A DNA stretch of 64,000 nucleotides, taken from IMG/VR virus record IMGVR_UViG_3300027763_000037, positions 32,001 through 96,000 of that record; one strand, written 5' to 3'. The DNA comes from a virus. A program made the translations under genes and the position numbers. The notes under the pieces are model-generated. The model was not told the origin of the DNA, made no database searches, and saw nothing but the letters and a program-made list of their open reading frames with translations. Numbering within the stretch: the first letter of the stretch is position 1; every line of letters begins with the position of its first letter. Shown one piece after another: positions 47,033-64,000 of this stretch.

Positions 47033-47563
47033 TCACACAATCCGTGTAAACCAACGTGGTGTTGTATAGCGGATTCCATCTTCAATCCCTCTAACTCCGT
47101 GAACGTAGTCTGGATTATCTGGGAAACAAAGAAGATCTCCTGGTTCTGGCTTATGGGATATTCCTAATGCTGGGAAATAAATATCTCCACCAACATAATC
47201 ATTATTTAGATACAGGATAGTTGCAATGTCGTTAGGTCTATTCATATCATAGTGTTCGTGCATACCCTCGCCTGGAGTAAACTTTGCAATATGAGTTTTT
47301 TCATCTAAGAATGATTGAAAAGGACCTTCGTAACTACCAACAACAAAATCATAAACTTTTTTAGCATATTCCTGCATAATGTCTAAAATAGACTGATCAT
47401 TTCTTTGTATTTCGTGATAAGTATGAACTGTAAATTCTTTTTCTCCATTACCATATTCTGTAAAAAGAAGTGTGTGAGATTTAGAATATTCTGCAATAGA
47501 TAAAGCCAATTCTTTTGGCATAAACTCTTTTACATATATTACTTTTGATTTTAAGTCTTCCAT
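47033..47563 (-). CDS. Prolyl 4-hydroxylase-like 2OG-Fe(II) oxygenase
   Basis: HYD, ILYLNNDYVGGDIYFP, KPEPG.L..FP, HGV...G.RY. Confidence 0.88.
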   Translation of the reverse strand: MEDLKSKVIYVKEFMPKELALSIAEYSKSHTLLFTEYGNGEKEFTVHTYHEIQRNDQSILDIMQEYAKKVYDFVVGSYEGPFQSFLDEKTHIAKFTPGEGMHEHYDMNRPNDIATILYLNNDYVGGDIYFPALGISHKPEPGDLLCFPDNPDYVHGVRGIEDGIRYTTPRWFTRIV

Positions 47564-49593
47564 TATTTCACCTTAATTTCGCAATAGTCTGTTGTGCAAT
47601 ATGCTTCACCTTGAGCCTCAAGATTATCTACACCGTCGTAAATTGCTCCAAAGTCAATGTGCTTCAATTTGCCAATATAACCATTATACTCCTCTTCGGT
47701 AATCTGAGTATAGGGTTGTTGTGGATATGTATGGTTTCCCATTGGAAGGAACGAGACTGCCTTTAGTTGTCCCTCATACATATTAAGCGCTGGGGCAACA
47801 TGCTTAGATTCTGTTTCTTTATCAAATGAAAGTGTTACAGAAACTCCATTATCTGACCAGTATTTTTGAGCAGTTGCAGCAAGTGCAATCTTTTCAAATA
47901 ATGTTACATCTTTTTCAGAACGTTTTTGTCCTGATTTGATTGGGAAATAAACTACTGATGTATTTGCTGATACTACGTCATCTTCAATTGTGTACCCTGC
48001 TGCTTTGAACAAATGAATCATTGGATCTGTGTTTCCAAAACGAACGGCACGAAGGAAGAACTCTCCTCCAGGACCCCAGTGAACTCCAGGAGTTGCACCA
48101 GAAAGAATTGAAACTGATCCTGATGGCTTAACTGTTGTTACACGAATTGATTCACGAACACACAGCCATTCTGAATATTGGTGATCATAATGACGAATCT
48201 TGTTGTATCCTTCGTCCATCCATTCACGAACTGTTGGCAAACCTTTTTGATCTGCAAATGATGCAATACCAGTAAGAGATGTCCCAATACGACGATTACG
48301 TTGCATGATACCGTTTGTTTGTGGCCAGTGTGTTGGAAGAAGAGTAACAGTTTTACCATACAGGTAAGCAAACTTTAATGTCTTGAGGAAGTCCTCCTTA
48401 GATTCATGACGATTTAAGTGCACTTCTACAAGCGTACATAATTCGTATGACTCCAATGGCTGCTCCGCACAAGGATTAAAGCCCATAACTCGATAGTCTT
48501 TTCCATCTGCTGGATCTGCAAGACGACCATAGTTACGAGCAACATCAAGCCAAATAAAACCTGGCTCTCCGTTATTAACAATTAGATCAGTATACTTTTC
48601 GTATTCCATTCCAACTGTTGCAGAAATTGAATTGTTTGACATCCATGCCCATCCTGGATTTTCTGGGTCAAAAGAGTTCCGCTCTGGAAATACTTCTGAG
48701 TTCTTAAGATTAATAAAATCTTCGTCTCCTGCTGCGCCTAAAGCAAGTGTTGCTGAACGACGAACATTTCCTGATACTACGCAGGTACCAATAAGATTAA
48801 TGATATCTGTAATAGCACGAGAATCTAAGGTTTCTCCTACTCTACCGCCAATTACACGGTCTATCTGTGTATGTAGTTGAATAAGTGGTGCTGGACCGCT
48901 GGCGACCCCTCCAAAGCCTTTAATTGGTGCTCCTAGAGGTCTGATAAGGTCGTAGTTAAACTTCTGAATAGACTGATTTGGTCTTAGGTAAGAGTTAAGA
49001 AGAATTCTTACTGACTCAACCCATCCTTCACGAGTGTCTGGAATTTCGAACACCTGTTCTGGCTCTGTTGGAGCAGAGATTAAGAAATTCTTTTCCTGTC
49101 CCACAGTGTCAAACCCTACACCGATTCCAAGCATAAGAGCATCCATAACCCAAGCAAATAGGGCTCCTGGATCATTTTTATCAAGGTCTTTTGTAGATAC
49201 CATTGCACAATTTTGAAGTGCTGCTGAGTTCTTCTTCTCCATTGTCATATGAGTTCCAAAAGTCCACATACCTCTTCCTGGTGGCGTCCACTTTAATTCA
49301 AACATTCTCTGGAAGGCTTCTTGAGCAGACTTCTGAGCCTTGTAATCATTCCATGGAAGACGGTTTTCTTTAGCATGATTCTTTTGTACTGAATACATGC
49401 CCTCGATTACACGACGACAAACATCATGCCATCTTTCCTTAGTTCCATCTTCCTTCATGCGAGAATATGTACGAATAAAAGTAATCTCTCCAAGTGAATT
49501 TTCTGCTGCATCCTTAAACCCAAATGGGCTTTCTTGGCTCTTGTACTTTTCTACGAAGTCTTCTGGAAGTTTAAAACTAAAAAAATCTGACAT
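47563..49593 (-). CDS. nrdJ: Class II (B12-dependent) ribonucleotide reductase
   Basis: RTYSR, PPGRG, LQNC, VVSGNVRRSA, FNPCAEQ, CTL, TTVKPSG, C-terminal CxxxxC. Confidence 0.95.
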   Translation of the reverse strand: MSDFFSFKLPEDFVEKYKSQESPFGFKDAAENSLGEITFIRTYSRMKEDGTKERWHDVCRRVIEGMYSVQKNHAKENRLPWNDYKAQKSAQEAFQRMFELKWTPPGRGMWTFGTHMTMEKKNSAALQNCAMVSTKDLDKNDPGALFAWVMDALMLGIGVGFDTVGQEKNFLISAPTEPEQVFEIPDTREGWVESVRILLNSYLRPNQSIQKFNYDLIRPLGAPIKGFGGVASGPAPLIQLHTQIDRVIGGRVGETLDSRAITDIINLIGTCVVSGNVRRSATLALGAAGDEDFINLKNSEVFPERNSFDPENPGWAWMSNNSISATVGMEYEKYTDLIVNNGEPGFIWLDVARNYGRLADPADGKDYRVMGFNPCAEQPLESYELCTLVEVHLNRHESKEDFLKTLKFAYLYGKTVTLLPTHWPQTNGIMQRNRRIGTSLTGIASFADQKGLPTVREWMDEGYNKIRHYDHQYSEWLCVRESIRVTTVKPSGSVSILSGATPGVHWGPGGEFFLRAVRFGNTDPMIHLFKAAGYTIEDDVVSANTSVVYFPIKSGQKRSEKDVTLFEKIALAATAQKYWSDNGVSVTLSFDKETESKHVAPALNMYEGQLKAVSFLPMGNHTYPQQPYTQITEEEYNGYIGKLKHIDFGAIYDGVDNLEAQGEAYCTTDYCEIKVK

Positions 49594-49628
49594 AATATGT
49601 ATCGTCCTTTCAAAAACGGAATAGCCTA

Positions 49629-49637
49629 AGTATAGCA
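49629..49637 (-). promoter_or_regulatory. Extended -10 for nrdJ
   Basis: TGCTATACT about 35 nt upstream of start. Confidence 0.65.
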
Positions 49638-49682
49638 GAGTTTTTAAAAAAGTAAAACTCTACCTTAATCTATAGTTTAGAG

Positions 49683-49832
49683 TTAAGAGAAACTCATACC
49701 TCTATCATGAGAAATAGGAAAACATCTTTCACAATAAGATCTTGATGCACTTGTAACTGGACAAGACTTAGTAACAACCTTGTGACCAAAAACAAAACAC
49801 AAAATCTTTTTAGATATTAAAGTTCTACCCAT
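49683..49832 (-). CDS. Small Cys/His protein (DUF1660-like, 49 aa)
   Basis: Manual ORF MGRTLISKKILCFVFGHK...CP...YCERC. Confidence 0.5.
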   Translation of the reverse strand: MGRTLISKKILCFVFGHKVVTKSCPVTSASRSYCERCFPISHDRGMSFS

Positions 49833-50479
49833 AGTGAATCTACGCCAAGACCTCTTGGACAAATATCATATGCAATAGTAATTCTGCTCTTTTCACTCCA
49901 CCATAAATCTCTTGTATGAGGGTGACCAGTTTCTGAAACAATTGCTCTATTGTTAATATTAACATTGTCAAAATCTTTAACTCTATCAATTTGATAAAAA
50001 GTTACAGAAGGCTCTGCATTTACACAATAATAACCATGAAATACTGGAGCGCCTTGACCTCCCATATGGTCGTGCAAGTTCATTTTTACAGAAGATTCAT
50101 CTGGATTAGCAGCAAGCCATTGCTCTCTTGTTCCAGGTAGCATCTTCTTGTCTAAGTTATACCAGCCTTTAATTGCATATTCTTGCTCATTAAAATCAAT
50201 ACCATAATAAGCAGATGCTTCAAAAACTAAGTCTCTCAGGGTGTCTTTTAGTTTATCTAATCCTGGGTGACTATATGTGTTTTTGTCAAATATGTTATAG
50301 TGATGAGCCAGTTGTGTCGAAGGCCCATGATCTTCATTTACTCCAATTAGTTCTTCTTTTGGAATAAAATCTCTTTGTCCTGCAACCATCTTTTTTTGAT
50401 CATCAACAAGGTAATCAAATAAAGAGTCTAAATCATTATCAATAATCTTATCAAAAAACTTATGTGGTGGTTTAGACAT
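49817..50479 (-). CDS. 2OG-Fe(II) oxygenase-like (HxH type)
   Basis: GWYN, LHDH, FHGYYCV, GHPH, RITIAYD; start uncertain. Confidence 0.75.
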   Translation of the reverse strand: MSKPPHKFFDKIIDNDLDSLFDYLVDDQKKMVAGQRDFIPKEELIGVNEDHGPSTQLAHHYNIFDKNTYSHPGLDKLKDTLRDLVFEASAYYGIDFNEQEYAIKGWYNLDKKMLPGTREQWLAANPDESSVKMNLHDHMGGQGAPVFHGYYCVNAEPSVTFYQIDRVKDFDNVNINNRAIVSETGHPHTRDLWWSEKSRITIAYDICPRGLGVDSLWVEL

Positions 50480-50484
50480 CGCTA

Positions 50485-51147
50485 TCATGATAATGGGATC
50501 CAATGCTGTTCTTGACCCATGCCGTGAGTAATTAGGTCTCTTAATGGAATAACATCGTATGCAACAGTAATTCTTGGACCTTCCCAGTCCCAGTCAGCCA
50601 TGGCGTGTGGATGTCCCATTTCAGAAAGAATTGCTCTATTATCAATATTAACATTCTCAACATTTTTATTGAATACACGATAATGTGTTGTTGATGGAGC
50701 AGCCTTTACACAATAGTATCCATGGAAGTTTGGGGCGCCTTCTGGACCATGATCATGCCAATCTAGTTTGCCTTTGCCTTTATTGGTAATGTTAAACCAT
50801 CCCTGAAGCATATATTGGTTTGCATTAAAATCAACACCATAATAGTCACATGCTTCTTTTGTCATATCTCCAATTGCCTTGTATAGGCTATAAAGTTCTT
50901 TACTGTGAAATTGGAAAACATTATATTGTCTCCACTTCATTGTTGAAACACTGTTTGACTGCTTCCATATTTCATTTTCTCCAACTGGAGTTACGCCAAT
51001 AATTTCTGCGTTTTGAATTTTAGTATATCGATCTTGAAGATCTGCTGACAACTTGTTTAAATCATTACCAAGAAATCTCTCAAAAAACCTATGAGGTTGT
51101 GGAGACCTGCTTGTACTTTCCACCATCGGTGGGTAGTTTGAATTCAT
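50485..51147 (-). CDS. 2OG-Fe(II) oxygenase-like (HxH type)
   Basis: YNVFQF, GWFN, WHDH, FHGYYCV, GHPH, RITVAYD; paralog of adjacent gene. Confidence 0.78.
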   Translation of the reverse strand: MNSNYPPMVESTSRSPQPHRFFERFLGNDLNKLSADLQDRYTKIQNAEIIGVTPVGENEIWKQSNSVSTMKWRQYNVFQFHSKELYSLYKAIGDMTKEACDYYGVDFNANQYMLQGWFNITNKGKGKLDWHDHGPEGAPNFHGYYCVKAAPSTTHYRVFNKNVENVNIDNRAILSEMGHPHAMADWDWEGPRITVAYDVIPLRDLITHGMGQEQHWIPLS

Positions 51148-51175
51148 ATTTTTCCCCTATTCAACTAGTAAATAA

Positions 51176-51184
51176 AGTATATCA
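51176..51184 (-). promoter_or_regulatory. Extended -10 for oxygenase pair
   Basis: TGATATACT in the intergenic gap. Confidence 0.65.
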
Positions 51185-51188
51185 CATG

Positions 51189-52751
51189 CTACGCTTGTGG
51201 TGTTTGAGTCTGATCGTAGAAGTCTTTACCATCATGAGTAAGTGAATGCTCAGTGAAGAATATGTCATAAGGCTCACAGTTAATTGTGATAACATTTGTT
51301 GTTCCCTCAAGAACTTCAAGTTCAGTAATAGGTGACCACGCTGATAAAGAGTAATCCCATACCAAGTCTGTTTGAACTATATCTTTAGCCCATTCAAATG
51401 TTGATACTCCTGCTCTTTGTACAAGAATTAGGTGGTTTGGAGAGAATGCGTCTCCATTTAGTCTAACTGTTGAGTCTACAGGGTGTGTGCTTATTCTATT
51501 AATTGTTGTTACAACATTTTCTGCTGTAGTTAAGTCTGCTGATGCTGACCAATCATAGATTGTTGCTGACTCTGTATTTTCAAGTCCTGGAAGAGACAAT
51601 GACTTTAATTCATCGCCAACATTAAGATCTTGAGCCTCTTTAAGGCTTCCATCAGACATTCTAACCTTAGTCTTAGGTCCAAGAGAGTAGTATCCTGACC
51701 ATGGTGAGAATCCGAATACACCGAATGGTGAGAATCCGAATACACCGAATGGTGAGAATCCGAATACACCGAATGGTGAGAATCCAAACACTGAGAATGG
51801 TGAGAATGGTGAGAATCCGAATACACTGAATGGTGAGAATCCAAACACGTAGAAAGGAGTAAATGAAAACACTGAAAATGGTGTTACAGGTGCAAACGAA
51901 AATACGCTAAATGGAATAAATGAGAACACTCCGAATGGGGCAAACGAGAACACTCCAAATGGAGTAAACGAGAATATAGGTGTGAATGAAAACACTCCGA
52001 ATGGTGTAAACGAGAATACGCCAAATGGTGCAAATGAGAACACTCCAAACGGTGCAAATGAGAACACTGGTGTAAACGAGAATACTCCAAATGGAGCAAA
52101 CGAGAATACACCAAACGGTGTAAATGAGAATGTTGTTACGGATGCAGAGGCACTAGATAGTTCTGACCATCCCTTTGAGTTATAGGCACGAACACGATAT
52201 GTCTGTGATGTTCCTGCTTCTTGGTTTACATTTATAGATGTTCCAGAAGTATAAACTGTCTTTCCATCTGATGATGTAATTTCATAGTTTGTTATTGCTG
52301 CTCCGCCATTATCTGCAGGTGCTTGCCAAGATACGCTATCGTAGCCTGCTCCAGTTGGTGAAGAGGCTGTAACTGATGTTGGTGCATCAGGAACTGTAAT
52401 AGATGCTACTGATCCAGCATTATATTCGCTTGAATCTCCATATGATGTGTTAACTGCTTTAATTGTCCATGTGTAGTTTGCTCCGCCACGAAGACCTGTG
52501 GCTACGTAAGGTGAAGAAGTTACACCAGGGAAAGTCTTATTTCCATAATTTGGGTTATATGCTGTAAGGGTATAGGATGTTGGTGCTGCTCCGTATGTTG
52601 GGGCTGTAAATGTAATTGTAAACTGTCCACTTAAGTATGTAAAACCAGAGTTAACTACAGAAACAATCGTTGGTTCTGTTGGGCTAATCGCCTGATATCT
52701 TGGAACAGTCTTTGACTGCTTTCCTGCTTTACCACCTTTACGAATTGGCAT
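51189..52751 (-). CDS. Protein with 2 FN3 domains, FxVFxFxP repeats and C-terminal Hint domain
   Basis: FN3 motifs (WQAPADNGGAAITNY, YRVRAYNSKGWS), 143-aa repeat tract, Hint blocks SLGPKTKVRMSDG / SPNH / IFFTEHSLTHD. Confidence 0.85.
   Translation of the reverse strand: MPIRKGGKAGKQSKTVPRYQAISPTEPTIVSVVNSGFTYLSGQFTITFTAPTYGAAPTSYTLTAYNPNYGNKTFPGVTSSPYVATGLRGGANYTWTIKAVNTSYGDSSEYNAGSVASITVPDAPTSVTASSPTGAGYDSVSWQAPADNGGAAITNYEITSSDGKTVYTSGTSINVNQEAGTSQTYRVRAYNSKGWSELSSASASVTTFSFTPFGVFSFAPFGVFSFTPVFSFAPFGVFSFAPFGVFSFTPFGVFSFTPIFSFTPFGVFSFAPFGVFSFIPFSVFSFAPVTPFSVFSFTPFYVFGFSPFSVFGFSPFSPFSVFGFSPFGVFGFSPFGVFGFSPFGVFGFSPWSGYYSLGPKTKVRMSDGSLKEAQDLNVGDELKSLSLPGLENTESATIYDWSASADLTTAENVVTTINRISTHPVDSTVRLNGDAFSPNHLILVQRAGVSTFEWAKDIVQTDLVWDYSLSAWSPITELEVLEGTTNVITINCEPYDIFFTEHSLTHDGKDFYDQTQTPQA
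51702..52130 (-). repeat. Coding tandem repeat, 24-bp unit (FxVFxFxP)
   Basis: 20 Pro-terminated units, 15 of them octamers; the last three are identical at DNA level. Confidence 0.95.
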
Positions 52752-52781
52752 TTTATTCCCCTTTTCTTATTTGTATTTTAA

Positions 52782-54731
52782 TTATGCTGTTAGATCGCCT
52801 GAAAGGATCCAGATATTGGTATCACGCTTTGTTAGCGTTCCACCTGAGTACTGAGCACGAAGTTTTAGTCCTGGAGTATAATAAATTGTTACTCCTGATG
52901 CTGCAGCAATTGTTGTTTGTCCAGTTCCCTTTTGGAAAACGTCAACAGATGTTCCTATTGGAAATGCTACTGTAGCATTAGTTGGAACAGTTATAGTTGT
53001 TGCGCTTGAAGAGTTTGTTTCAACCATATTTGTTGCATCAGATAGAGCAAGTGTATAACTTGTTGTCTGTGTATTAAATGATGACAGTGTTGCTGAATCA
53101 AGTTCAGTTTTACTTGCCTTAAGAGCAAGAGCATTTGTCATTGTAGTTGAGAAGTTTGCATCGCTACCCAGTGCTGTTGCCAACTCATTTAATGTATTAA
53201 GAGTTCCAGGTGCTGAAGCAACTAACGCTGCAATTGCTGAGTCAGCATATGCTGTTGTTGCTATCTGAGTATTATTTGTTCCTGCTGTTGCTGTAGGAGC
53301 AGTTGGTGTACCAGTAAATGCTGGTGATGCAACTGATGCCTTCAAAGCATCTGCAGTATCTACATATGTCTTAGTAGCCAAGGCTGCTGTATCAGCAATT
53401 CCGTGGATATCTGTAGTGTCTGTAGCATGTGATGACAATGCTGAATCAGAGTATGTCTTAGTAGCAAGTGCTGCTGTATCAGCAATACCATGAACGTTTG
53501 TTGTTGCTGAATTATGTGTTGTAAGTGCTGTTCCTGCTGCTGTTGCAGCATCTGCAATTGCTTCTGTTTTAGCAGTTGCTACGTTTGCTGTAGTTGCTAG
53601 AAGGGCTGTATTAGCAATTCCATGAACGTCAGTTGTGTCTGCTTGGTGAGATCCTACTGCTGAATCAGCGTATGTCTTTGTGGCAAGTGCTGAAGTATCA
53701 GCAATACCATGAACATCAGTTGTATCTGATCCGTGAGCAAGAACTGCTGCATCTGCCTTAGCCTGTGCTCCAGAAGATGTTTCAAGAACTGAAGTATCTG
53801 CAATTCCGTGAACAGAAGTTGTATCTGATGAGTGTGTTCCAAGAGCAGTAGTTGCAGCGGTATCTGCTGCTGCAATAGCCTCTGACTTTGCAGTTGCTAC
53901 ATTTGCTGTAGTTGCAAGAAGTGCTGTGTCAGCAATTCCATGAACGTTTGTTGTATCTGTTCCATGTGTTCCAATTGCTGTATCTGTATAAGATGCTGCT
54001 GTCTGTGTTGCTGCTGTCTCTGCTGCATCTGCTGCTGCATCTGCATATGCCTTTGTAGAAAGAAGGGCTGTGTCAGCAATTCCATGAACATTTGTGGTAT
54101 CTGCAGTATGGGTATTAATTGCTGTCTCTATTTCAGTTGCAACATATGTATTTCTTGCAGTTGTCATACTTGTTTCTGATGCATCAATTTCAGACTCAAC
54201 AAATGCTTTTGTTGCAAGCAATGTTGTATCTGCAATACCATGAATGTTTGTTGAGTCGTTGCTAAACTCTGTGATAGCAGTTGAAATTGCTGTAGCAACT
54301 GTTGCATTTGTAGCAAGAACAGTTGTATCTGTAATTCCATGGACATTTGTTGTATCCGCATTGTGTGTATTAACTGCACCATTAACTACGGATCCAATCA
54401 TGTCTACTGCACTGGCTAATTCTCCAAGAGTGTCGAGTGCTGCTGGGGCATTTGTTATAAGAGACCCTAGTTGTGAGATAGGAACTTGGCCTTGGCTATT
54501 AAGTGTGGCAACACCACCAGGTACAGCCATTTGTGAATCTAAAATAAAACCTGAAGTATCAAGGTCTCCAAAATCTTTAAAATACGACAGGGCAGACCAT
54601 TGGTTGGTACCGTCACCCATCTTAAACATACCTGAATCAGTTTCAAAACCAATTTCACCTGCTGCTAATACTGGGTTTGCTGCAGTCCATTGTGACGCAG
54701 TACCTCTACGCTGTTGCATTCTAGTTGCCAT
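52782..54731 (-). CDS. Tail fibre protein with Mtd-like N-terminal domain, His repeats and GDLTA C-terminal domain
   Basis: QQRRGTASQW...GEIGFETD...GDG; nine TTxVHGIADT-type repeats; SPAFTGTPTAPT and LNTLNELA fibre motifs. Confidence 0.82.
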   Translation of the reverse strand: MATRMQQRRGTASQWTAANPVLAAGEIGFETDSGMFKMGDGTNQWSALSYFKDFGDLDTSGFILDSQMAVPGGVATLNSQGQVPISQLGSLITNAPAALDTLGELASAVDMIGSVVNGAVNTHNADTTNVHGITDTTVLATNATVATAISTAITEFSNDSTNIHGIADTTLLATKAFVESEIDASETSMTTARNTYVATEIETAINTHTADTTNVHGIADTALLSTKAYADAAADAAETAATQTAASYTDTAIGTHGTDTTNVHGIADTALLATTANVATAKSEAIAAADTAATTALGTHSSDTTSVHGIADTSVLETSSGAQAKADAAVLAHGSDTTDVHGIADTSALATKTYADSAVGSHQADTTDVHGIANTALLATTANVATAKTEAIADAATAAGTALTTHNSATTNVHGIADTAALATKTYSDSALSSHATDTTDIHGIADTAALATKTYVDTADALKASVASPAFTGTPTAPTATAGTNNTQIATTAYADSAIAALVASAPGTLNTLNELATALGSDANFSTTMTNALALKASKTELDSATLSSFNTQTTSYTLALSDATNMVETNSSSATTITVPTNATVAFPIGTSVDVFQKGTGQTTIAAASGVTIYYTPGLKLRAQYSGGTLTKRDTNIWILSGDLTA

Positions 54732-54784
54732 TTATCTCTCCTTATGGGGGCTGCCCATTATTCTCTTATTATAACATCAATTTA

Positions 54785-55234
54785 TTAATTGAAATTATCT
54801 ACTGCACTACCGCCATCGAATACTACTGTCCAAGTTGTATCACTTGGTCCACCAGCATCCAAACCTACACCCAATGGGCTATTAAAAGTTCCAGCATTAT
54901 AGAACTGCGAAACAATGAAACCTGTTCCATCAATTGCAGTATCGTGAATGTGCTCTGGAAGTGTGTTTGTATCATCAATAGTTGCTTGGGTATACCAAGA
55001 ACCGTTGTAATAAAAATTAATTCTACTTGTTAAAGTGTCTAACCATTGTGTTCCATTAGTTGGTGAAGAAGGAGCAGTTGTGCCTACAGCCATTGAACGA
55101 CTATCGACATACTCCTTAGTTGCTGCATGTGAAGCAAGAGTTGGATCTCCCACTGTTACTGCATCTCCGAATGTACCGCCGTTTGATACGACTAATCCAT
55201 TCTTGACTCTGAAGTCTTTATCGACTGTTGTCAT
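54785..55234 (-). CDS. Virion structural/fibre protein
   Basis: KDFRVKNGL, HAATKEYVD, APSSP.NG.QW, DGG motifs. Confidence 0.65.
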   Translation of the reverse strand: MTTVDKDFRVKNGLVVSNGGTFGDAVTVGDPTLASHAATKEYVDSRSMAVGTTAPSSPTNGTQWLDTLTSRINFYYNGSWYTQATIDDTNTLPEHIHDTAIDGTGFIVSQFYNAGTFNSPLGVGLDAGGPSDTTWTVVFDGGSAVDNFN

Positions 55235-55269: not shown

Positions 55270-57063
55270 TTACGCTACTAGTGTTCCGACAACAGTCACT
55301 GTTGAGGTGTTGTTGGCAGTTGTTACTAGAAGTTGTACATCTGTTCCTGAAATACCTGCTGAAATTGTTGATGCTGAACCATTAGTTCCAACAATTCCGT
55401 ACTCAGTAATTGCAATATTGTCTGAAGTATCAAGTGTTAAAAGTACCTTTGAGATTTCAGTGTGTGTTCCGTAGGCAACCTTTACAAGGTATTCTGCTGA
55501 ACGGTAGTCAGCCTTTGCAAAAGCATGTGCTACCTGAATTCCTGCTGTTGGTGCTGACAGTGTTGCTGCAACTTGCTTAGCAACCGAGTTTAACGCAACC
55601 GCTGTAAATGAACGAGTTGTTCCATCTACTGCAGCACGAGCACGAGCATCTGTAAAGTACTTGTTTGTACCTTCTGCAAGATCAGTTGTTGTAGAATCTG
55701 CTACACCATTTTCTGCTGATATTACAAGACCGTTTTCATCACCTGTTATTGTAATGTTTGTCTTTGTAGCACCAACGATAAGTGCTGCTGCTGCAGTCTT
55801 AGCACGAGTTGTTGTAAAGTATTGAGAAGTTCCTTCTGCAACATCAGATGTTGTAAGTGCATCAGCATAAGCCTTTGCATCTACTTCAGCCTGATCTGCA
55901 TATGTCTGATAAGCAGTTGTAATTGCTGTCTCACGAGTGTCTGTGTATGCCTTTGCATCTACTTCAGCCTGATCTGCATAGTTCTGGTAAGCAGTTGTGA
56001 TTAAGCCTTCACGAGTGTCTGTGTATGCTTTAGCATCTGTCTCTGCGCCATCTGCATAACCTTGTGCTGCTGTATCAAGAGTTGAAATTTCTCCATCTAC
56101 ATAACCCTTTGTTGCTGCATGTAGATTTAATGTTGGTGCTCCTGACAATGTCAAGGCTCCAGTCATTGTATCTCCAGCCTTTGCTACTCTTCCAGCAACT
56201 GCGTTAGCAGCGTCAGTAGCATAAGATGGGTTGTTAGCAATTGCTGCAGACAACTCATTCAATGTGTCAAGTAGTGCTGGTGCTGCTCCAACAAGATCAG
56301 AAACTTCCTGATCTGTGTAAGCCTTAGAATCTACAAGTGCCTGTGCTGCTGCACCCTTTGCATCATATGTTGTTGCAAGGTTAAGACCTGTTATTGCTGT
56401 ATCTGTGTAAGTTTCTGATGTTGAAATTGCATCTGCTTCTGCTTGATCTGCGTAAGCCTGAGTTGCAAGAACATCTGCACCCCACTTAACAGAAGAACCT
56501 GCTGCTGGAGTAAGAACGATATGAGAATCAGAATTGATTGTCATTGATCCTGCGCCAGTGAAGTTAAGTGTATCTCCAATAGTCTTATTTGTTAATGTTT
56601 GTGTGTCTGATGTTCCTACTACGTTACCAGTTACACCGTGTGCAGAAGTATCAGATTCGTGATCTGCAAGATCTCCTGCTACAAGTCCTGCTTCTGTTGC
56701 TGCAGTTCCTGCTGCATCGTATGCTGCTGCTGTAGCATCAAGTGCTCTTTGGTTTGTAAAGTACTTATTTGTTGCATTTTCTGCAAGGTCTGCAGTATCG
56801 TGGTTTGAAAGGCTTGATACTGTTCCTGTTACGTTACCAGTTAAATCTGCTGTAATTGTTCCTGCAGCAAAGTTACCATTAGCATCACGCTTTACAACCT
56901 TGTTTGCTTCGTTAGCAGATGTGGCTGTTCCGCCAATAAGACTAACAATGTAGTCTTGATCTGCTTGCTTCTTTGTAAGAACGTCAAAATTGTTAACTGT
57001 CGCTGTTGTACCTTCAACAATGAGACCACTCTTAATTTTAAAATCTTTATTTACTGTTGCCAT
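55270..57063 (-). CDS. Fibre-like structural protein
   Basis: KDFKIKSGL, RDANGNFAAG, EG.NKYFTDARA, AKAYTD repeats, YRSAEY C-terminal domain. Confidence 0.72.
   Translation of the reverse strand: MATVNKDFKIKSGLIVEGTTATVNNFDVLTKKQADQDYIVSLIGGTATSANEANKVVKRDANGNFAAGTITADLTGNVTGTVSSLSNHDTADLAENATNKYFTNQRALDATAAAYDAAGTAATEAGLVAGDLADHESDTSAHGVTGNVVGTSDTQTLTNKTIGDTLNFTGAGSMTINSDSHIVLTPAAGSSVKWGADVLATQAYADQAEADAISTSETYTDTAITGLNLATTYDAKGAAAQALVDSKAYTDQEVSDLVGAAPALLDTLNELSAAIANNPSYATDAANAVAGRVAKAGDTMTGALTLSGAPTLNLHAATKGYVDGEISTLDTAAQGYADGAETDAKAYTDTREGLITTAYQNYADQAEVDAKAYTDTRETAITTAYQTYADQAEVDAKAYADALTTSDVAEGTSQYFTTTRAKTAAAALIVGATKTNITITGDENGLVISAENGVADSTTTDLAEGTNKYFTDARARAAVDGTTRSFTAVALNSVAKQVAATLSAPTAGIQVAHAFAKADYRSAEYLVKVAYGTHTEISKVLLTLDTSDNIAITEYGIVGTNGSASTISAGISGTDVQLLVTTANNTSTVTVVGTLVA
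55871..56030. repeat. 78-bp period direct repeat in fibre gene
   Basis: GCCTTTGCATCTACTTCAGCCTGATCTGCATA at 55871 and 55949; encodes YTDTRE..ITTAYQ.YADQAEVDAKA twice. Confidence 0.85.
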
Positions 57064-57081
57064 TTTTTATATCTCCTTTTA

Positions 57082-57528
57082 TTATGCCTTAAGTCCCATA
57101 CGAGCATATCGTACAGTGACTGGCTTGATCGCAGGATCTGGAGTGACTGTTAAGGCCACGGTATTTCCAGTGCGAGAGACATTAATGGTGCCAATATTCC
57201 CATCATTGTCGATTGTTCCATACTCGCTGACTGATACATTTGCACCGTCAACAAGAATACTTAGTTCAGTTGCGTAGAACTTATTGTCCCCTGCGGAGGT
57301 CTTTGATATTGAAACAATATACTTAACCAAACGCCAAACTGTTGCATCAAAGTTATCAATAACAGTTACGTTCTCAATTCCATTGACTGTGTTTTCATTG
57401 TTACCCGCTGATCCCAAATCTGTTGACTGAGAAACAAGGGTATCGATTAAATCTACGTAATTTTCTTGAGTAGGTCTATCACCTGTTTGAAATAGACTCT
57501 TTACTCCTGGGACTGATATCTTTGCCAT
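57082..57528 (-). CDS. Virion structural protein
   Basis: FQTGDRPTQENYVDLID N-terminus; C-terminal domain resembles that of 55270-57063 (KYIV...EYG). Confidence 0.65.
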   Translation of the reverse strand: MAKISVPGVKSLFQTGDRPTQENYVDLIDTLVSQSTDLGSAGNNENTVNGIENVTVIDNFDATVWRLVKYIVSISKTSAGDNKFYATELSILVDGANVSVSEYGTIDNDGNIGTINVSRTGNTVALTVTPDPAIKPVTVRYARMGLKA

Positions 57529-57534
57529 AGTGAG

Positions 57535-57543
57535 ATTATAGCA
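57535..57543 (-). promoter_or_regulatory. Extended -10, leaderless
   Basis: TGCTATAAT 6 nt before ATG 57528. Confidence 0.7.
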
Positions 57544-57549
57544 TGTATT

Positions 57550-57774
57550 TTAAAGTATATAGTTATTCAAACCAATTACAGCAATGCCAATTGGTGCTGG
57601 AGATGATGCGGAATAGCCTGGAATCTGAATGTTTGTTATACGTATTCTAAATGGTAATACTTCGTTAATCTTAACTATAGGGGAAGGCTTTGAAATCTTT
57701 ATAGCCCCGTAAGTTACAGCATTAATTGCTGAAACTTTTCTCTTAGTATTATTATTGATTATTGAAGTAGCCAT
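57550..57774 (-). CDS. Small structural/hypothetical protein
   Basis: ORF coupled to upstream gene; PIGIAVIG..NYIL terminus. Confidence 0.55.
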   Translation of the reverse strand: MATSIINNNTKRKVSAINAVTYGAIKISKPSPIVKINEVLPFRIRITNIQIPGYSASSPAPIGIAVIGLNNYIL

Positions 57775-58181
57775 TAATCAGTTACATCTTCAATAACAAT
57801 TACGCTACCCTGGCAAACTGTCCAAACAGTCTCATTCCCTGGGGCAGACAACTGAATATCAAATATGTCTCCAGTCTGCAATGTTAAAGATTGTGTTGCT
57901 GATAAAAATACTGTAAATTCTCCTGGAAGGTCGTCTGGATCTGCAGCGGGACTTAGAGTCATAACAACCGAAGCATCGTCACTAATAAGTGCTGGAGTGG
58001 TATTGGGTCTTTTAATTTTCATAGCAATTGCCCAGTCTGGAACATTTAAAGGTGCTTCCAAATCATCCGTTACATAAACTTTAAATGAGGCAGTGTCCCC
58101 ACGGACAAATGTCCAAGTAACCTGTGGTGGCTTTGAGCCAACATCGTACTGAGATTTTTGAGAATTTCTGCTTGTTGCCAT
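57774..58181 (-). CDS. BppU N-terminal-like adaptor protein
   Basis: RGDT...FDIQL....TVCQG.V.V.EDVT pattern. Confidence 0.6.
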   Translation of the reverse strand: MATSRNSQKSQYDVGSKPPQVTWTFVRGDTASFKVYVTDDLEAPLNVPDWAIAMKIKRPNTTPALISDDASVVMTLSPAADPDDLPGEFTVFLSATQSLTLQTGDIFDIQLSAPGNETVWTVCQGSVIVIEDVTD

Positions 58182-58187
58182 TTTTAA

Positions 58188-58196
58188 ATTATACCA
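58188..58196 (-). promoter_or_regulatory. Extended -10, leaderless
   Basis: TGGTATAAT 6 nt before ATG 58181. Confidence 0.7.
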
Positions 58197-58208
58197 CGAA
58201 TCTTTAGT

Positions 58209-59159
58209 TTATACCCAGTCTTTTGGAAACTCTGTGAAGTCATCATAGCCTATAAATCTAAAAGCATCTGACTTTTTAGAACAAAACATCTCTCTTTGAA
58301 TATAGGCAGTAAAAGTGCTTCTAGGGGTTCCAATAAAATCCTTTGACTGACACATTACTAATAATCCAATCAGACCAAAAACAATTTCTGACTGACTAGG
58401 TAAAGCCAAAAACTCATTTGAAAAATTATCTACAATGTAGTCATCTAAAAATACAATATCTTTATTTTTAAATATTTCATTGTTTACATCATCTGTTAAT
58501 ACTACAGTTTTTAAATCATTATTTTTAAGCGCTTTATCAAAATCTTTCTCTGAAAAACTAAATGTTCTTTCTGCATGATCTGTAAGCCTTACGTGCATGC
58601 CACGAAATTCTCCAAGACTCTTAGCAACCTTGTTTGCTAAATCAACATACTCCTCTTTAAAAGTCACCTTTATCTTATTTAAAAATTCATCATCTTGATT
58701 GGCAAAAAAAGTTTCACGGTTGGCCAGGTTTGGACCAGACATATTATACGACTTGCCTTCTTCAAAAATTAATTCTTTTTTATTAAAATGCTCAGCCCCT
58801 ACTTGAATTTCTTTATTAACATTTGCATAATCTAAAAATAAGTTATCAGATATTTTAATTTCATCTTTAGAAAACTGATCTATTTTTCCAAAAGCAATAT
58901 ACTCCCAAACCAAAGATTTATCAAAATCTATTAACTCAAAAAAGTTTACCATTTCTCTTTTAACAATTGAATCTCTTTTTCCAAAAACAACATTATCACT
59001 AATTGGAAAACTATCAAGCCAATTTTGTTGCTTATCAAGTAAATTATAGATAACAAGTTTTTTCTTTGTTATACAAGAAAGACCAAGTCCTACTTCTAAA
59101 CTAAACAGTCTGTTTGTTAGTCCTGCATGGTGCAATCTGTAAAATAAAAAGTTATCCAT
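58209..59159 (-). CDS. GDP-sugar-dependent O-fucosyltransferase-like glycosyltransferase (GT-B)
   Basis: AGLTNR, GMHVRLTD, VLTDD, C..SKDFIGTPRSTFT motifs of the POFUT/FucT superfamily. Confidence 0.8.
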   Translation of the reverse strand: MDNFLFYRLHHAGLTNRLFSLEVGLGLSCITKKKLVIYNLLDKQQNWLDSFPISDNVVFGKRDSIVKREMVNFFELIDFDKSLVWEYIAFGKIDQFSKDEIKISDNLFLDYANVNKEIQVGAEHFNKKELIFEEGKSYNMSGPNLANRETFFANQDDEFLNKIKVTFKEEYVDLANKVAKSLGEFRGMHVRLTDHAERTFSFSEKDFDKALKNNDLKTVVLTDDVNNEIFKNKDIVFLDDYIVDNFSNEFLALPSQSEIVFGLIGLLVMCQSKDFIGTPRSTFTAYIQREMFCSKKSDAFRFIGYDDFTEFPKDWV

Positions 59160-60177
59160 TTTGTTTTTTTATCCATTCATATGTTTGTTTGATTCCATCT
59201 TTAAGAGACATTGAGTAATCCCAATCTAACTTTTCTCTAACTAAATCATTGTTAGAGTTTCTTCCTCTAACTCCAAGTGGGCCAGGAATATGCATTTTAC
59301 TAAGAGTTTTACCTTCAATGCTACAAGCAATATCTACCAGTTGATTTATAGTAACCATTTCTTCAGAACCTATATTGACAGGACCAGTAAAATCTGACTC
59401 CATAAGTCTTCTTGTTGCTTCTATACATTCATCTATGTATAGGAATGATCGAGTTTGTTCTCCATCCCCCCAAATTTCTATAAATCCATCTGCTTGTATA
59501 ACTTTTCGACACATTGCTGCAGGAGCCTTTTCTTTTCCACCATCCCAAGTTCCTTCTGGTCCATAAATATTATGATATCTTGCAATGGCTACTGGGATTT
59601 TATTATTTCTATTAAAGGCTAAAAACATTCTTTCGCTAAACAATTTTTCCCAGCCATACTCACTGTCAGGATCTGCAGGGTATGCATCAGACTCCTTAAG
59701 TCCAGGATTATTAACATCTAACTGCTTATAGTCAGGATACATACATGCAGAACTTGAATAAAATATTTTAGTTTTATTTATATTATATTTTTCATTAAGC
59801 CTGGACTGTGCTCTTAACAAATTAAGGTTTATCAGAGCAGAGTTTTCCATAATCTGAGAATCATTTAAACCAGTAAATATATATCCAGCCCCACCCATAT
59901 CGGCAGCAAATTGATATACCTCATCAAAAGAAGTTATAGAGCGATAAGGAACTTCGTGATAAAAGTTTCCTTGATATCCTTTAAACTGAATAACTTTTTC
60001 AACATTTTCATATACGGATAAATCTCTTTCAATAAACTCGTCTGCTTCTGTTTCTGAAAAGTCTGGATGTTTTAAATCAACACCACGAACCCAGTATCCT
60101 TCTGATTTTAATCTTTTAACCATGTGGCTTCCAATGAAGCCTCCTGCACCAAAAACAAGTGCTGTTTTTTGTGTCAT
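59152..60177 (-). CDS. GDP-mannose 3,5-epimerase-like NAD-dependent epimerase
   Basis: GAGGFIG, AADMGG, SSACMYP, YGWEK, GGKEKAPAAMCRK, WGDGEQTRSF, GVRGRNSNN; start MTQKT via TAATG overlap. Confidence 0.9.
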   Translation of the reverse strand: MTQKTALVFGAGGFIGSHMVKRLKSEGYWVRGVDLKHPDFSETEADEFIERDLSVYENVEKVIQFKGYQGNFYHEVPYRSITSFDEVYQFAADMGGAGYIFTGLNDSQIMENSALINLNLLRAQSRLNEKYNINKTKIFYSSSACMYPDYKQLDVNNPGLKESDAYPADPDSEYGWEKLFSERMFLAFNRNNKIPVAIARYHNIYGPEGTWDGGKEKAPAAMCRKVIQADGFIEIWGDGEQTRSFLYIDECIEATRRLMESDFTGPVNIGSEEMVTINQLVDIACSIEGKTLSKMHIPGPLGVRGRNSNNDLVREKLDWDYSMSLKDGIKQTYEWIKKQNG

Positions 60178-60719
60178 TATGCTAAACCGTTTTTCAGTGC
60201 TCCCCAAGTGCCATTTCCTTTTGCTTGAACAATAACTATTCCAGGATTTCCTTGGTGTGCAACAATACCTACTGCAACTCCAGAGTTTGCTGGTTTTGCT
60301 CCTGATGAGTCATTGGCCCCAGCAACTAATCCACCAGTTTGTCCAACGTAGAGAATAGACCCACTTGCAAATGTTGAAGTATTTAAACCTTCAAGAACTC
60401 CACCAACTACAACAACCCCGTTTGAATTATTTGCTATTGTTGTTTTTGATAAACCTAATAATGTTTGTGATGATGTTCCAGTTAGTCTTGTTATTAATGT
60501 TCTTTCTGATCCAGAACTATAGCCAGAAGCATATACTGGATCCCCCGCTAAAATAGAAGATCCAGTTTCATTTCTTACACTAATTTGAAAATATGAAAGT
60601 CCTAATGGAGGAAGAATCTCTTCTAATTTAGTTACTAAATCTTCAATATCTCCGTGTACATTAACGTTATCGCTTGCTAAAGGATAAGGTAAGCCGAGAC
60701 CGTTTAATTTTGTTGCCAT
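60177..60719 (-). CDS. Putative virion decoration/fibre protein
   Basis: LPYPLASD.VNVHGD N-terminus, Gly-rich beta domain; TGGTATAAT just upstream. Confidence 0.5.
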   Translation of the reverse strand: MATKLNGLGLPYPLASDNVNVHGDIEDLVTKLEEILPPLGLSYFQISVRNETGSSILAGDPVYASGYSSGSERTLITRLTGTSSQTLLGLSKTTIANNSNGVVVVGGVLEGLNTSTFASGSILYVGQTGGLVAGANDSSGAKPANSGVAVGIVAHQGNPGIVIVQAKGNGTWGALKNGLA

Positions 60720-60747
60720 AGTACTTTTATTATACCATTGTTCAGAG

Positions 60748-60777
60748 TTGACTTTTAGAGAAATATCATGATATACT
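60748..60777 (+). promoter_or_regulatory. Sigma70/SigA-type promoter of the only plus-strand gene
   Basis: TTGACT-N18-TATACT with extended TG; back-to-back with a minus-strand -10 at 60729. Confidence 0.8.
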
Positions 60778-60824
60778 AGGTAGTAACACCTACCAAGGTG
60801 TTATTGTTTTCTAAGGAGGAAACT

Positions 60825-61388
60825 ATGATTAAATTTATCGAAAGAAACAAAGAGATCATTAGCACACTCAGTATCGTAGTACTAGTAACGGTTTTGTCAA
60901 ACTCTGCTAATGCTATTTCAGATCTTGATACAAAGAACAATCTTAGCCTGGAACAGGCTCAGACATCGGAAACCGCCTCGAAAGAGGTTTTTTTGGTTTC
61001 TAAGGCAAAAAAACTAGAGAGTTTTGAGAATAAGACATCTCTGACCGATATTGAACTAAAGGAACTTCTTTCTCTAGTAGGATTTAAGGGTAAAGACCTT
61101 GTGGTTGCTTGGGCGGTTGCTAAAAAAGAATCTAATGGACGACCATTGGCTTTTAATGGCAATCATAAGACTGGAGACTCATCTTATGGCATGTTTCAAA
61201 TTAATATGATCGATTCCCTTGGTCCTGACCGTAGAGACAAGTTTGATCTTGATTCAAATGCAGAACTATTTAATCCCGTCAAGAATGCAGAGATTGCATA
61301 CTACATGACAAATGGTGGAGACGACTGGTCTTCTTGGAAAGGCATTACGCCAAAGACCAGAATGTGGATGAAGAAATTTCCTAAGTAG
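60825..61388 (+). CDS. Secreted lytic transglycosylase (lysozyme-like/SLT)
   Basis: Signal peptide ending SANA; AVAKKES catalytic Glu, GMFQIN, LFNPVKNA, W..W; AAGGAGG RBS. Confidence 0.85.
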   Translation: MIKFIERNKEIISTLSIVVLVTVLSNSANAISDLDTKNNLSLEQAQTSETASKEVFLVSKAKKLESFENKTSLTDIELKELLSLVGFKGKDLVVAWAVAKKESNGRPLAFNGNHKTGDSSYGMFQINMIDSLGPDRRDKFDLDSNAELFNPVKNAEIAYYMTNGGDDWSSWKGITPKTRMWMKKFPK

Positions 61389-61623
61389 GCCATTTGTTTG
61401 CTGGGCAGGTTGCATGCAAAAGTTTTGATTTAGCAGCCATAAAACATCCACACAACTTGCATTGCTTGGTTGGCAAAAGGTTTGGACAAGACTTGCATAT
61501 CTCATATCTTTGGTCTGCAACATTTTTATGAGCATATTCCGTATTTGGTTTAATAAAATCCCACGGTCTTGTTTCTCCTAAGTTTTGTTTATATTTTTCC
61601 CAGGCTGAAAGTTCTTCACTCAT
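61381..61623 (-). CDS. DUF6171-like Cys-rich protein
   Basis: R..ICxxC...QCxxCGCF...K......CP..KW. Confidence 0.75.
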   Translation of the reverse strand: MSEELSAWEKYKQNLGETRPWDFIKPNTEYAHKNVADQRYEICKSCPNLLPTKQCKLCGCFMAAKSKLLHATCPANKWPT

Positions 61624-61855
61624 TTACCCATTCCGTTCTATATTCATTTAGTATAGACTCTGCAATAATATCATTAATAATAACAGAATATGAATTTCCT
61701 TCAAAAAAATATTTTAGTATATGTGTTGCTTCTTTTTTTATATTTGGTTCAATTGTATATGTTGTATTTTCTCTATTTTTAAAAAAAGAAACTAAAACAT
61801 TTTCTCCAGGTAGAGAAAGAATTAAATTTTCTTTTTTATAAATATTTATTGTCAT
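61616..61855 (-). CDS. Hypothetical protein
   Basis: AT-rich ORF overlapping the next gene's start. Confidence 0.5.
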   Translation of the reverse strand: MTINIYKKENLILSLPGENVLVSFFKNRENTTYTIEPNIKKEATHILKYFFEGNSYSVIINDIIAESILNEYRTEWVNE

Positions 61856-61885
61856 AGTACCAATTCTATCATATTACCGCAATCT

Positions 61886-63616
61886 TCAAGCCATACCTGG
61901 ACAACACTCATTATTGTCAGGATTAAATGCACCTGGGCATTGCTCTTCATTTGAAGCATAGTAACATCCTGGGCCATAACCTGATGGGGCAGGAGTAAAC
62001 GAGAATGCTGGTGTAAATGTAAATGTAGCAGTAGGAGTAAATGTAAACACACCAAATGGTGAGAATCCAAATACATAGAAAGGTGTAAATGTAAATACTG
62101 AAAATGCTGGGACGGGTGTAAATGTAAATACTGTAAATGCATCAATTAAATCTCCACAGCATTGCATTCCAACTCCTATTTGATAGTCATTAGGCCCTCC
62201 AAGATATTCTCTTCCTAATTCTGCACAAGTATAATTACTTGCCCTAGTGGTCATTCCAGGACATTGAGGTTTGGCTACTGGAGTAAATGTAAACACACTA
62301 AATGGTACAAATGAAAAAACTCCAAATGGTGTAAAAGTAAATGCTGGAGTACAGGCTTCATTTTCTTCCCAAGGTCCAGACCTTCCTGCTATATAAAATG
62401 CTTGACTATAACTTGAAGTAGTGCAGTCTGCATTAGTAGTGGTTACTGTTCTTGTTGTAGCATATCTTCTTCTTGAGTCTACGTTACAGTTTCCCCAATC
62501 GCCCCAATCATAGGTATAGGTAGTAGAAGAATTGCAGGTCACTAAACAATCTCTTTGCTCTCTCCAAGGACCTGAATTTCCTACTGTATAAAAATATTGA
62601 GTTCCAGTGCTGACAGAACAGTCTGCATTAACTGTAGAATAATCTCTATATGTTGCCCATCTAGACTGTGTTCCATTAGAGCATGTCTCCCATTCTCCCC
62701 AACCGTAAGTATATGTTGTTGCTACTGTACATCCTGCAGCAACGTAATTCCACATAGTTAAATTTACACTTGTTCCTGAAGCAACTGCAGTTCCTGATGA
62801 TGGTGATTGGCTTTGTACTTTGCCACTATTAGCAGCAGTGCTTGTAGTTGTTCCTGTTGCAAAACTTCCAGTAACTAATCCTGCTGCTGTGATTGCACTT
62901 TGTGCTGCTGCAGATGTCATTCCTACAACATTTGGAACTGTTTTATCCAATATTGGTGGTGTGTCTGCATTTGTTTTTACCGTTCCTTGACCCAAAACAG
63001 ATTGACCAGTTCTTCCTGGTCCAGGGTATACAAAAAGAGTTATATCATGGACATTATCTGGCGTAAGGCCAGTTGCAGTAACAGTTGTTGCGGTGGTGCC
63101 TTCTACAGAAAAGCCTGGTTCATCATCTGAGAATCTTGGAACTACCATCAAGAAAAAAGAACCTTGTCCTGTTGACGTCCAACTAATTGTTGCTGTAGTT
63201 GTTCCAGTTGCAGTTCCTGATACGGTGCCAACTGTTGTACCTACTGGGGCAGGAGTAAATGTAAAAACAGTAAATGGAGTAAAAGAAAACACTGAAAATG
63301 GTACAAATGAAAACGTAACTGGTGTAAATGTAAATGGTGTAACTGGTGTAAATGTAAATACACTAAACGGAGTAAAAGAAAATATTCTATATGTAAAATC
63401 TATTGGGCTTTCATAATCAATTAAAACTCCTGGAGTTTTTGCTTGAGTTGCTACAGTATTTGTTTTTGTATTATCTTCTTGTGTTATTGTAGATGCAACA
63501 CCTACAGTCAAACCGTTGGTTTGAATTAGTGCTTCTGCTGCTTCTTTTGATATCTCAAGAATGTTTGGTACTGATACCATTCCTTTTGAAGCAGACCATT
63601 TGCTAATCCAACCCAT
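61886..63616 (-). CDS. Mosaic adhesin-like protein: PASTA, FN3, PASTA, 2 thrombospondin-like repeats, Cys modules, FxFTP repeats
   Basis: VPNVVGM..AA...I.AAGL...V.SQSP..G PASTA; WGEWETC/WGDWGNC repeats; three FxFTP blocks. Confidence 0.8.
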   Translation of the reverse strand: MGWISKWSASKGMVSVPNILEISKEAAEALIQTNGLTVGVASTITQEDNTKTNTVATQAKTPGVLIDYESPIDFTYRIFSFTPFSVFTFTPVTPFTFTPVTFSFVPFSVFSFTPFTVFTFTPAPVGTTVGTVSGTATGTTTATISWTSTGQGSFFLMVVPRFSDDEPGFSVEGTTATTVTATGLTPDNVHDITLFVYPGPGRTGQSVLGQGTVKTNADTPPILDKTVPNVVGMTSAAAQSAITAAGLVTGSFATGTTTSTAANSGKVQSQSPSSGTAVASGTSVNLTMWNYVAAGCTVATTYTYGWGEWETCSNGTQSRWATYRDYSTVNADCSVSTGTQYFYTVGNSGPWREQRDCLVTCNSSTTYTYDWGDWGNCNVDSRRRYATTRTVTTTNADCTTSSYSQAFYIAGRSGPWEENEACTPAFTFTPFGVFSFVPFSVFTFTPVAKPQCPGMTTRASNYTCAELGREYLGGPNDYQIGVGMQCCGDLIDAFTVFTFTPVPAFSVFTFTPFYVFGFSPFGVFTFTPTATFTFTPAFSFTPAPSGYGPGCYYASNEEQCPGAFNPDNNECCPGMA

Positions 63617-63624
63617 AATTAGCC

Positions 63625-64000
63625 CTACGCTGTCAAATCGCCAATAAGAATCCAGGTATCGTTTTCAGTCTTTACTAGCGAACCACCAGAATATCTTGCA
63701 GCAATTTTCTTATTCATATTTTTACTTAAAATAGTAACACCGCTTGCTTCGCTAATTAAGACCCCACCGCTTCCATATCTAACTAAATCTACACGCTGAC
63801 CAACTACAATAGGAACCGATGCATTGGTTGGTACTGTTATAACAACATCGTTATTTGATGTAATTTTTAAGGTTTTTCCAACATCTGCCAAACTTAATGT
63901 TTTGCTTGCAGTTACTGCAGTTAAATAAACAGAGTCAGAATATTCTCTCCAAGATCCATTATAATAATATTGAATCTGATTTATAATGTCTCCATTATCA
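63625..64000 (-). CDS. Fibre/adaptor protein with GDLTA C-terminal domain (partial, open to right edge)
   Basis: Frame has no stop up to the window end; ITVPTNA...ASGVTI...YSGG.L.K...WILIGDLTA as in 52782-54731. Confidence 0.75.
   Translation of the reverse strand, partial: DNGDIINQIQYYYNGSWREYSDSVYLTAVTASKTLSLADVGKTLKITSNNDVVITVPTNASVPIVVGQRVDLVRYGSGGVLISEASGVTILSKNMNKKIAARYSGGSLVKTENDTWILIGDLTA

Follow-up and report, generated by a model that had tools for sequence, protein, structure and literature searches.

Two probable distal host-recognition modules with predicted self-processing adhesins in an uncultured ~112-kb phage

What is made by a pair of genes, one encoding a tail-tip domain and the other a protein with phenylalanine-rich repeats, that occurs twice within one virus genome? 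The question is raised by IMG/VR virus record IMGVR_UViG_3300027763_000037, a 111,921-base record rated complete, of which we analysed bases 32001-96000 (the window, 64,000 nucleotides, whose own numbering is used below). An earlier note had taken the two gene pairs, together with neighbouring oxygenases and sugar enzymes, for a system that hydroxylates and then glycosylates virion proteins. The host range of a phage is decided by its receptor-binding proteins, and we think it likely that the genes of this stretch specify the distal apparatus by which an uncultured ~112-kb phage recognises its host. Specifically, the reading that we favour, and judge to be probably correct, is that there are two such distal modules, whose adhesins are hypervariable and process themselves. 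The observations on which it is built are domain identities, the pairing of genes within modules, natural gene fusions and the distribution of genes among relatives.

The genes of the two modules are as follows.

52782-54731, minus strand: 649-amino acid (aa) tail fibre of module 1, with an Mtd_N-type N-terminus, HGIADT-type repeats, a tip domain at DNA 52785-53099 and the end WILSGDLTA.
51189-52751, minus strand: 520-aa repeat protein of module 1, with two fibronectin type III (fn3) domains, an 18-unit Phe-rich tract and a Hint domain.
63625-64000, minus strand: C-terminal 124 residues of the 216-aa protein of module 2, with a ~100-aa tip domain and the end WILIGDLTA; a 148-aa gene lies upstream.
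61886-63616, minus strand: 576-aa repeat protein of module 2, with two PASTA matches (best residues 226-287), an fn3-like stretch, Cys-rich modules and no Hint domain.

This twofold layout had been described correctly in the earlier note, in both coordinates and gene calls; the genes are all on the minus strand. Two fibres ending in a GDLTA domain had also been claimed. The shared domain is real, for over their last 95 residues the 649-aa fibre and the 216-aa protein are 45% identical (E 1e-19), but the second protein is not a long fibre; it is a short protein of 216 aa, whose gene extends 276 bases past the end of the window. The tip domain spans ~100 aa and has an invariant W-x3-GD near its end, followed by 1-3 further residues, usually L-x-A. 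Sequence searches of Pfam, NCBIfam and PDB gave no relative of it. The same domain occurs, at ~50% identity, at the end of minor tail proteins in Gordonia phages and in phage PhiJL001, in which the tip-domain gene directly precedes another tail gene, of a different kind.

For comparison we used 80 related viral contigs (loci), with seven complete relatives serving for gene presence and absence. Across the loci, wherever a repeat gene was present with its upstream region, a GDLxA-ending protein was encoded directly upstream (94/94 cases), and thus the pairing is not due to chance. A tip-domain hidden Markov model further identified three protein clusters (P0025, P0072 and P0088) in which a full tip domain (residues 129-232; E 1e-8 to 1e-9) is fused to 21-27 repeat units. 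P0025, the sole fusion inspected, has an N-terminus like that of the 148-aa protein and a Hint-type C-terminus; longer fused forms, of 911-2600 aa, were sought and none was found. On the strength of the three fusions we argue that the separate tip and repeat genes form one appendage. Together with the adjacency, they uphold the proposed association between the repeat proteins and the GDLTA tip domain.

The fn3 domains and Phe-rich tracts of the repeat proteins can be placed as follows.

52122-52685, minus strand: two fibronectin type III domains of the 520-aa protein, residues ~23-210.
51702-52139, minus strand: uncharged Phe-rich tract of the 520-aa protein, 18 units, residues 205-350, with an AlphaFold predicted local distance difference test (pLDDT) score of 24-31.
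63251-63391, 62282-62350 and 61982-62143, minus strand: three Phe-rich tracts of the 576-aa protein.

Both proteins carry the same Phe/Pro repeat. Its family consensus is the octapeptide F-x-V-F-G-F-S-P, 37% Phe and almost without charge, in which F, V, F, F and P are near-invariant and Ser or Thr precedes Pro in 91% of units. When the 18 units of the 520-aa protein were compared by codon, 253 synonymous and 185 non-synonymous differences were found, and the final three units do not differ in their DNA at all; the repeat peptide is therefore under selection and its array is still growing. Besides preceding the Hint domain, repeat tracts are found between globular modules. Using the tract as a query returned more than 450 metagenomic proteins, mainly of two layouts in which the repeats accompany either fn3 or PASTA, and across the family the proteins incorporate a short conserved N-terminal peptide, binding-type domains (fn3, PASTA, small Cys-rich), the octapeptide repeats and, mostly, a C-terminal Hint domain. 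By their fn3 and PASTA domains the repeat proteins look like adhesins, which agrees with the character earlier ascribed to them. A scan of 185,579 prokaryote genomes found the repeat on only two contigs of metagenome-assembled genomes; it is otherwise confined to phage contigs, and we therefore rejected the idea that it mimics a host protein. A non-coding or out-of-frame tract was also rejected, as it lies in frame between fn3 and Hint domains that AlphaFold folds confidently. The tract resembles the FG/FxFG repeats of nucleoporins in being uncharged, short, Phe-rich and predicted to be disordered; however, the phage repeats lack hydrophilic spacers and have a far higher Phe density, and no homology is implied. 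As a separate observation, the 576-aa protein contains two ~60-residue Cys/Trp modules (GWGEWETCS; residues ~290-420, window 62350-62750) that recall thrombospondin-type repeats, and the fusion proteins have similar small Cys modules with the repeats as spacers.

The C-terminus of the 520-aa protein holds a further domain.

51231-51686, minus strand: Hint domain (hedgehog/intein/bacterial intein-like (BIL) type), residues 356-507, with Ser356 at the nucleophile position, S437-P-N-H440 as block B (superfamily motif T-x-x-H) and H506-D507 at the end.

This domain, occupying the last ~165 residues, was overlooked in the earlier note. Pfam models by themselves score it under their cut-off, but a profile built from 29 of the C-terminal domains matched the bacterial intein-like domain 2LWY in PDB (E 2e-8), as well as several inteins. 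AlphaFold predicts the domain with a pLDDT of ~90, and when the model (residues ~350-510) was superimposed on known structures using VIA-align it matched BIL2 (6TMM; Z 17.9, rmsd, the root-mean-square deviation, 2.3, 141 residues), hedgehog (1AT0; Z 16.7) and 2LWY (Z 16.6), with Ser356 falling on residue 1 of inteins and Cys258 of hedgehog. In the other 28 aligned domains position 1 is Cys (21) or Ser (7), so that the nucleophile is kept in 29/29 despite identities of only 20-50%.

A survey of 105 repeat proteins showed three C-terminal forms. In the majority a domain of ~165 aa opens with C-[IV]-D-x-D-T and closes with V-V-H-N, after which come 1-4 residues; a second form, which includes the 520-aa protein, has a Ser start (YS-LGPKTKV) and a T-H-D end; and in 24/105 there is no C-terminal domain, most of these ending FNFAPWG where the Hint domain would begin. 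The residues likewise fall into two classes. Cys1 domains have an HN end and often Q or E at the position of the block-B His, and Ser1 domains keep this His (S-x-x-H) in all copies and have an [HF]D end; the two classes may differ in mechanism. Among the closest relatives (loci L008 and L010, positions 2-1111; 86% identity), the module-2 repeat protein has a Ser-type Hint domain at its end. The 576-aa copy ends instead in a Cys-rich tail, and the C-terminal part is thus exchanged rapidly.

The position of the domain is not that of an intein. It stands at the C-terminus, followed by 1-13 residues that provide no +1 nucleophile, and the 520-aa copy ends in H-D; being C-terminal and without a C-extein, it is Hint/BIL-like rather than a true intein. 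It has several features in common with BIL domains and with the domain by which hedgehog processes itself at its C-terminus (2LWY, 6TMM, 1AT0): the fold is shared (Z 16-18), the nucleophile occupies position 1 immediately behind the cargo, most homologues end in HN, and the domain forms the C-terminal end of a variable protein of extracellular type. However, the cargo here is a phage fibre-associated protein that ends in Phe-rich repeats, the 520-aa copy has Ser1 and an HD end, and there is neither a C-extein nor a sterol-recognition region.

From these features we infer the cleavage, the docking and the role of the repeats in a mechanism that would run as follows. Each module would consist of a tip-domain protein and a hypervariable modular protein encoded directly downstream. 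An N-S or N-O acyl shift at the first residue of the Hint domain (Cys in most homologues, Ser356 here) would allow the domain to cleave itself off, leaving a mature adhesin that ends in the Phe-rich tract. The tract might then either hold the adhesin to the fibre tip or serve as a sticky, extended tether. That the mature 520-aa protein probably ends in its repeats is suggested by the C-terminal location of the Hint domain and by the 24/105 homologues that stop where it would begin.

Several points weigh against this scheme. The terminal Asn is replaced by Asp in the 520-aa protein, the block-B His is absent from many Cys-type homologues, and the 576-aa protein of the second module in this window has no Hint domain. 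A docking or tether role for the tract is a guess, because the tract is predicted to be disordered. In addition parA and parB, two oxygenase-fold genes considered below, follow repeat gene 1 in 74/78 loci, which is compatible with a functional link between them and the repeats.

Given the missing block-B His, some Hint copies could be inactive or structural. Taken further, the Hint domain might be a degenerate, non-catalytic fold that acts as a binding or structural end-piece, with the repeats as plain flexible linkers, and the Asp in place of the terminal Asn in the 520-aa copy, the loss of the block-B His and the presence of repeats between globular modules are all in keeping with this. We nevertheless consider it unlikely, for Cys or Ser is found at position 1 in all of the 29 aligned domains in spite of their divergence, the residues form two internally consistent classes, and the variants without a Hint domain end at the predicted point of cleavage. 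A bolder form of the chemistry is also conceivable, in which the (thio)ester formed by the Hint domain is passed to a nucleophile on the tip protein, or on the host wall held by PASTA and fn3 domains, and so gives a covalent attachment resembling that of hedgehog. Such an attachment would act in phage adsorption or in fibre assembly, and we regard both the transfer and this use of it as a long shot.

C-terminal Hint domains on tail proteins have already been annotated elsewhere. The Cys-type copies are ~32% identical (E 8e-21 to 1e-11) to the C-terminal Hint domains of a 'putative tail fiber / virion structural protein' of Erwinia jumbo phages (e.g. Yoloswag gp103) and of a 'tail protein, contains intein domain' of phage NCTB, which are likewise encoded in tail-gene clusters. 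These phages belong to unrelated groups with unrelated hosts, and the Phe-rich tract has no match in the cultured-phage collection, a result that concerns the collection search and not the sequences of these proteins. A literature search on Hint or intein-like domains in tail fibres returned only inteins of terminase and ribonucleotide reductase (RNR) and toxin systems, and no study of such tail proteins.

A domain that removes itself from a fibre protein calls to mind the intramolecular chaperones of the Peptidase_S74 type, which are self-cleaving C-terminal domains of tailspikes and fibres. The likeness is that a C-terminal domain is predicted to detach itself once folding or assembly is complete, but fold and chemistry are unrelated, the S74 type being a peptidase with a Ser-Lys dyad and the present one a Hint domain that would act by acyl shift. 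With this parallel in mind, the repeat-plus-Hint proteins could be assembly factors, a removable cap or chaperone of the fibre tip that lies outside the finished virion. Fibre genes often have a chaperone gene directly downstream, as in fibres of the T4, P2 and Mu types, and the genes that come after the tip domain in cultured phages are small and varied. We hold this to be quite unlikely, since modules of the fn3, PASTA and Cys-rich kinds typically belong to exposed binding proteins and not to chaperones, the natural fusions place repeats and modules in one chain with the tip domain, and strongly diversified domain content suits receptor binding. If cleavage of the adhesin does take place, fibre proteins would have a second way of maturing by themselves, with a chemistry other than that of the S74-type domains, and nature would offer a collection of Cys- and Ser-type Hint domains whose cargo is very hydrophobic. 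An abundant family of uncultured freshwater phages assembles its probable receptor-binding proteins from three parts, which are a tip domain that would serve for docking, an octapeptide repeat that has 37% Phe and no precedent, and a predicted self-processing domain of the hedgehog/intein type.

It remains to consider the enzymes of the proposed modification system, together with related ones elsewhere in the genome.

50485-51147, minus strand: parB, 220 aa, 2-oxoglutarate (2OG)-Fe(II) oxygenase fold (double-stranded beta-helix); core gene of the phage family.
49817-50503, minus strand: parA, 228 aa, paralogue of parB (36% identity), with which it overlaps by 19 bases.
47033-47563, minus strand: 2OG-FeII_Oxy_3 (PF13640) oxygenase, 176 aa, between a class II RNR gene and a baseplate gene; a neighbour, and at most a possible member, of the module.
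G000:11183-11437 and 22225-22476, outside the window: further PF13640 oxygenases.
59152-60207, minus strand: GDP-mannose 3,5-epimerase (GME), matching PDB 2C59 (E 8e-91) over residues 18-349.
58209-59159, minus strand: 316-aa fucosyltransferase-like protein, weakly assigned; second gene of the GME cassette.
G000:5416-6528 (locus L093), outside the window: gene of the GT60-like polypeptide GlcNAc transferase family (PF11397), 370 aa, 56 bits.

The two paralogues had been called 2OG oxygenases, and their fold bears this out. Sequence searches of Pfam, NCBIfam and PDB returned nothing for either, but the model of parB (pLDDT 88) is a double-stranded beta-helix. Its best Foldseek matches are two uncharacterised roseobacter proteins, 3BVC (E 6.5e-6, template modelling (TM) scores 0.61/0.65) and 2RG4, followed by prolyl hydroxylases (E 2e-5 to 1e-4). 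H131, H133, H181, R192 and T194 are invariant, which suggests an iron site of a variant H-x-H…H type. The gene at 47033-47563, earlier described as resembling prolyl 4-hydroxylase (P4H), does match PF13640 (30.9 bits, above the Pfam gathering threshold of 27; scanning the genome gave 32 bits). Three PF13640 genes are found at scattered sites in the genome and, with the two beyond the window added to the set within it, the genome holds at least five oxygenase-fold genes. The GME identification likewise stands. That of an O-fucosyltransferase (O-FucT) beside it is less firm: the 316-aa protein matches PF10250 weakly (10 bits, E 0.03, by a C-terminal motif alone), does not match NodZ and has nothing above cut-off in Pfam, NCBIfam or PDB sequence searches. 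Its language-model neighbours (Atlas) carry O-FucT, NodZ and FUT8 families, which serves as a lead only.

According to the modification hypothesis the repeats are substrate tracts whose Pro or Phe residues are hydroxylated by the 2OG oxygenases encoded nearby and which then receive sugars from glycosyltransferases, so that the adhesin becomes coated with glycans. Its attraction is clear: parA and parB have the appropriate fold, with prolyl hydroxylases next among the structural matches after the two uncharacterised proteins, they lie after repeat gene 1 in nearly all loci, the Pro of the repeat is invariant and mostly preceded by Ser or Thr, and the genome has both PF13640 and GT60-like genes, the pair of enzymes that acts on Skp1 of protists. 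Prolyl 4-hydroxylases acting on Pro-rich repeats are known from chlorella virus PBCV-1 (P4H) and from the Skp1 system (PhyA/Gnt1), and as there the present genome combines P4H-family oxygenases, a GT60-like transferase and a protein with Pro-containing repeats. The likeness has limits, as the repeat is Phe-rich and not Pro-rich and the transferases are not co-inherited with it.

This last point can be made quantitatively. The repeat genes are universal, being retained in all seven complete relatives, yet the GME and FucT-like genes are present in 0/7 and the GT60-like gene in 1/7, so that the sugar enzymes assort independently of the repeats. Hydroxyproline glycosylation of the extensin or Skp1 type would imply that hydroxylase, transferase and substrate are inherited together, and among the seven complete relatives they are not. 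The GME and FucT-like genes occur together in three close relatives, and form a ~2-kb cassette (58209-60207) between conserved structural genes of 180 and 135 aa; because these abut in most relatives, the pair is an inserted accessory cassette. The GT60-like gene lies 77 kb away in this genome.

For the oxygenases the picture is different. The par genes are core genes (7/7 complete relatives, 12/12 searched genomes), but the whole region is syntenic. The order common to the related loci is the 148-aa gene, tip protein, repeat protein 2, SLT lysozyme (on the other strand), three small genes, a fibre, a small gene, the tip-domain fibre, repeat protein 1, parB, parA, RNR, PF13640 oxygenase and baseplate gene. 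Since gene order is conserved throughout, adjacency of par to the repeat gene is uninformative, and co-occurrence cannot separate function from ancestry. Moreover 0, 1, 2 or 3 par copies lie beside repeat gene 1; in one complete genome one copy adjoins the repeat gene and the other is ~56 kb away; module 2 has repeats with no oxygenase beside its repeat gene; and oxygenases of the par fold are scattered through the genome. parA, parB and the PF13640 oxygenase are syntenic core genes with at most a possible link to the repeats. The par oxygenases might conceivably hydroxylate the repeats, as a second and independent reading, but we consider the full scheme of hydroxylation followed by glycosylation quite unlikely, and the attractive idea of a glycan-decoration system is corrected here as unsupported with respect to its sugar enzymes.

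Some features of the stretch as a whole may be added. Every real gene at 43-64 kb is on the minus strand, bar one for an SLT lysozyme, and in the direction of transcription they encode the 148-aa and 216-aa proteins (a pair of genes lying partly past the window), the 576-aa repeat protein, the lysozyme (opposite strand), the 180-aa protein, GME, the 316-aa protein, small structural proteins, a 597-aa fibre, a 149-aa protein, the 649-aa fibre, the 520-aa repeat protein, the 220- and 228-aa paralogues, the class II RNR, the PF13640 oxygenase and a 1243-aa baseplate-like protein. A scan for promoters and terminators gave background levels. Nucleotide and protein searches of the cultured-phage collection gave no match for the region, the repeat protein, parB or the baseplate gene, and the family is thus known from metagenomes only. 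Its host is probably an actinobacterium, as judged from the PASTA domains, the occurrence of the tip domain in Gordonia phages and an RNR that is 60-62% identical to those of actinophages. The lysozyme gene, whose position is kept in relatives, is the sole plus-strand gene in the structural block.

60798-61388, plus strand: SLT-type lysozyme with a hydrophobic N-terminal segment.

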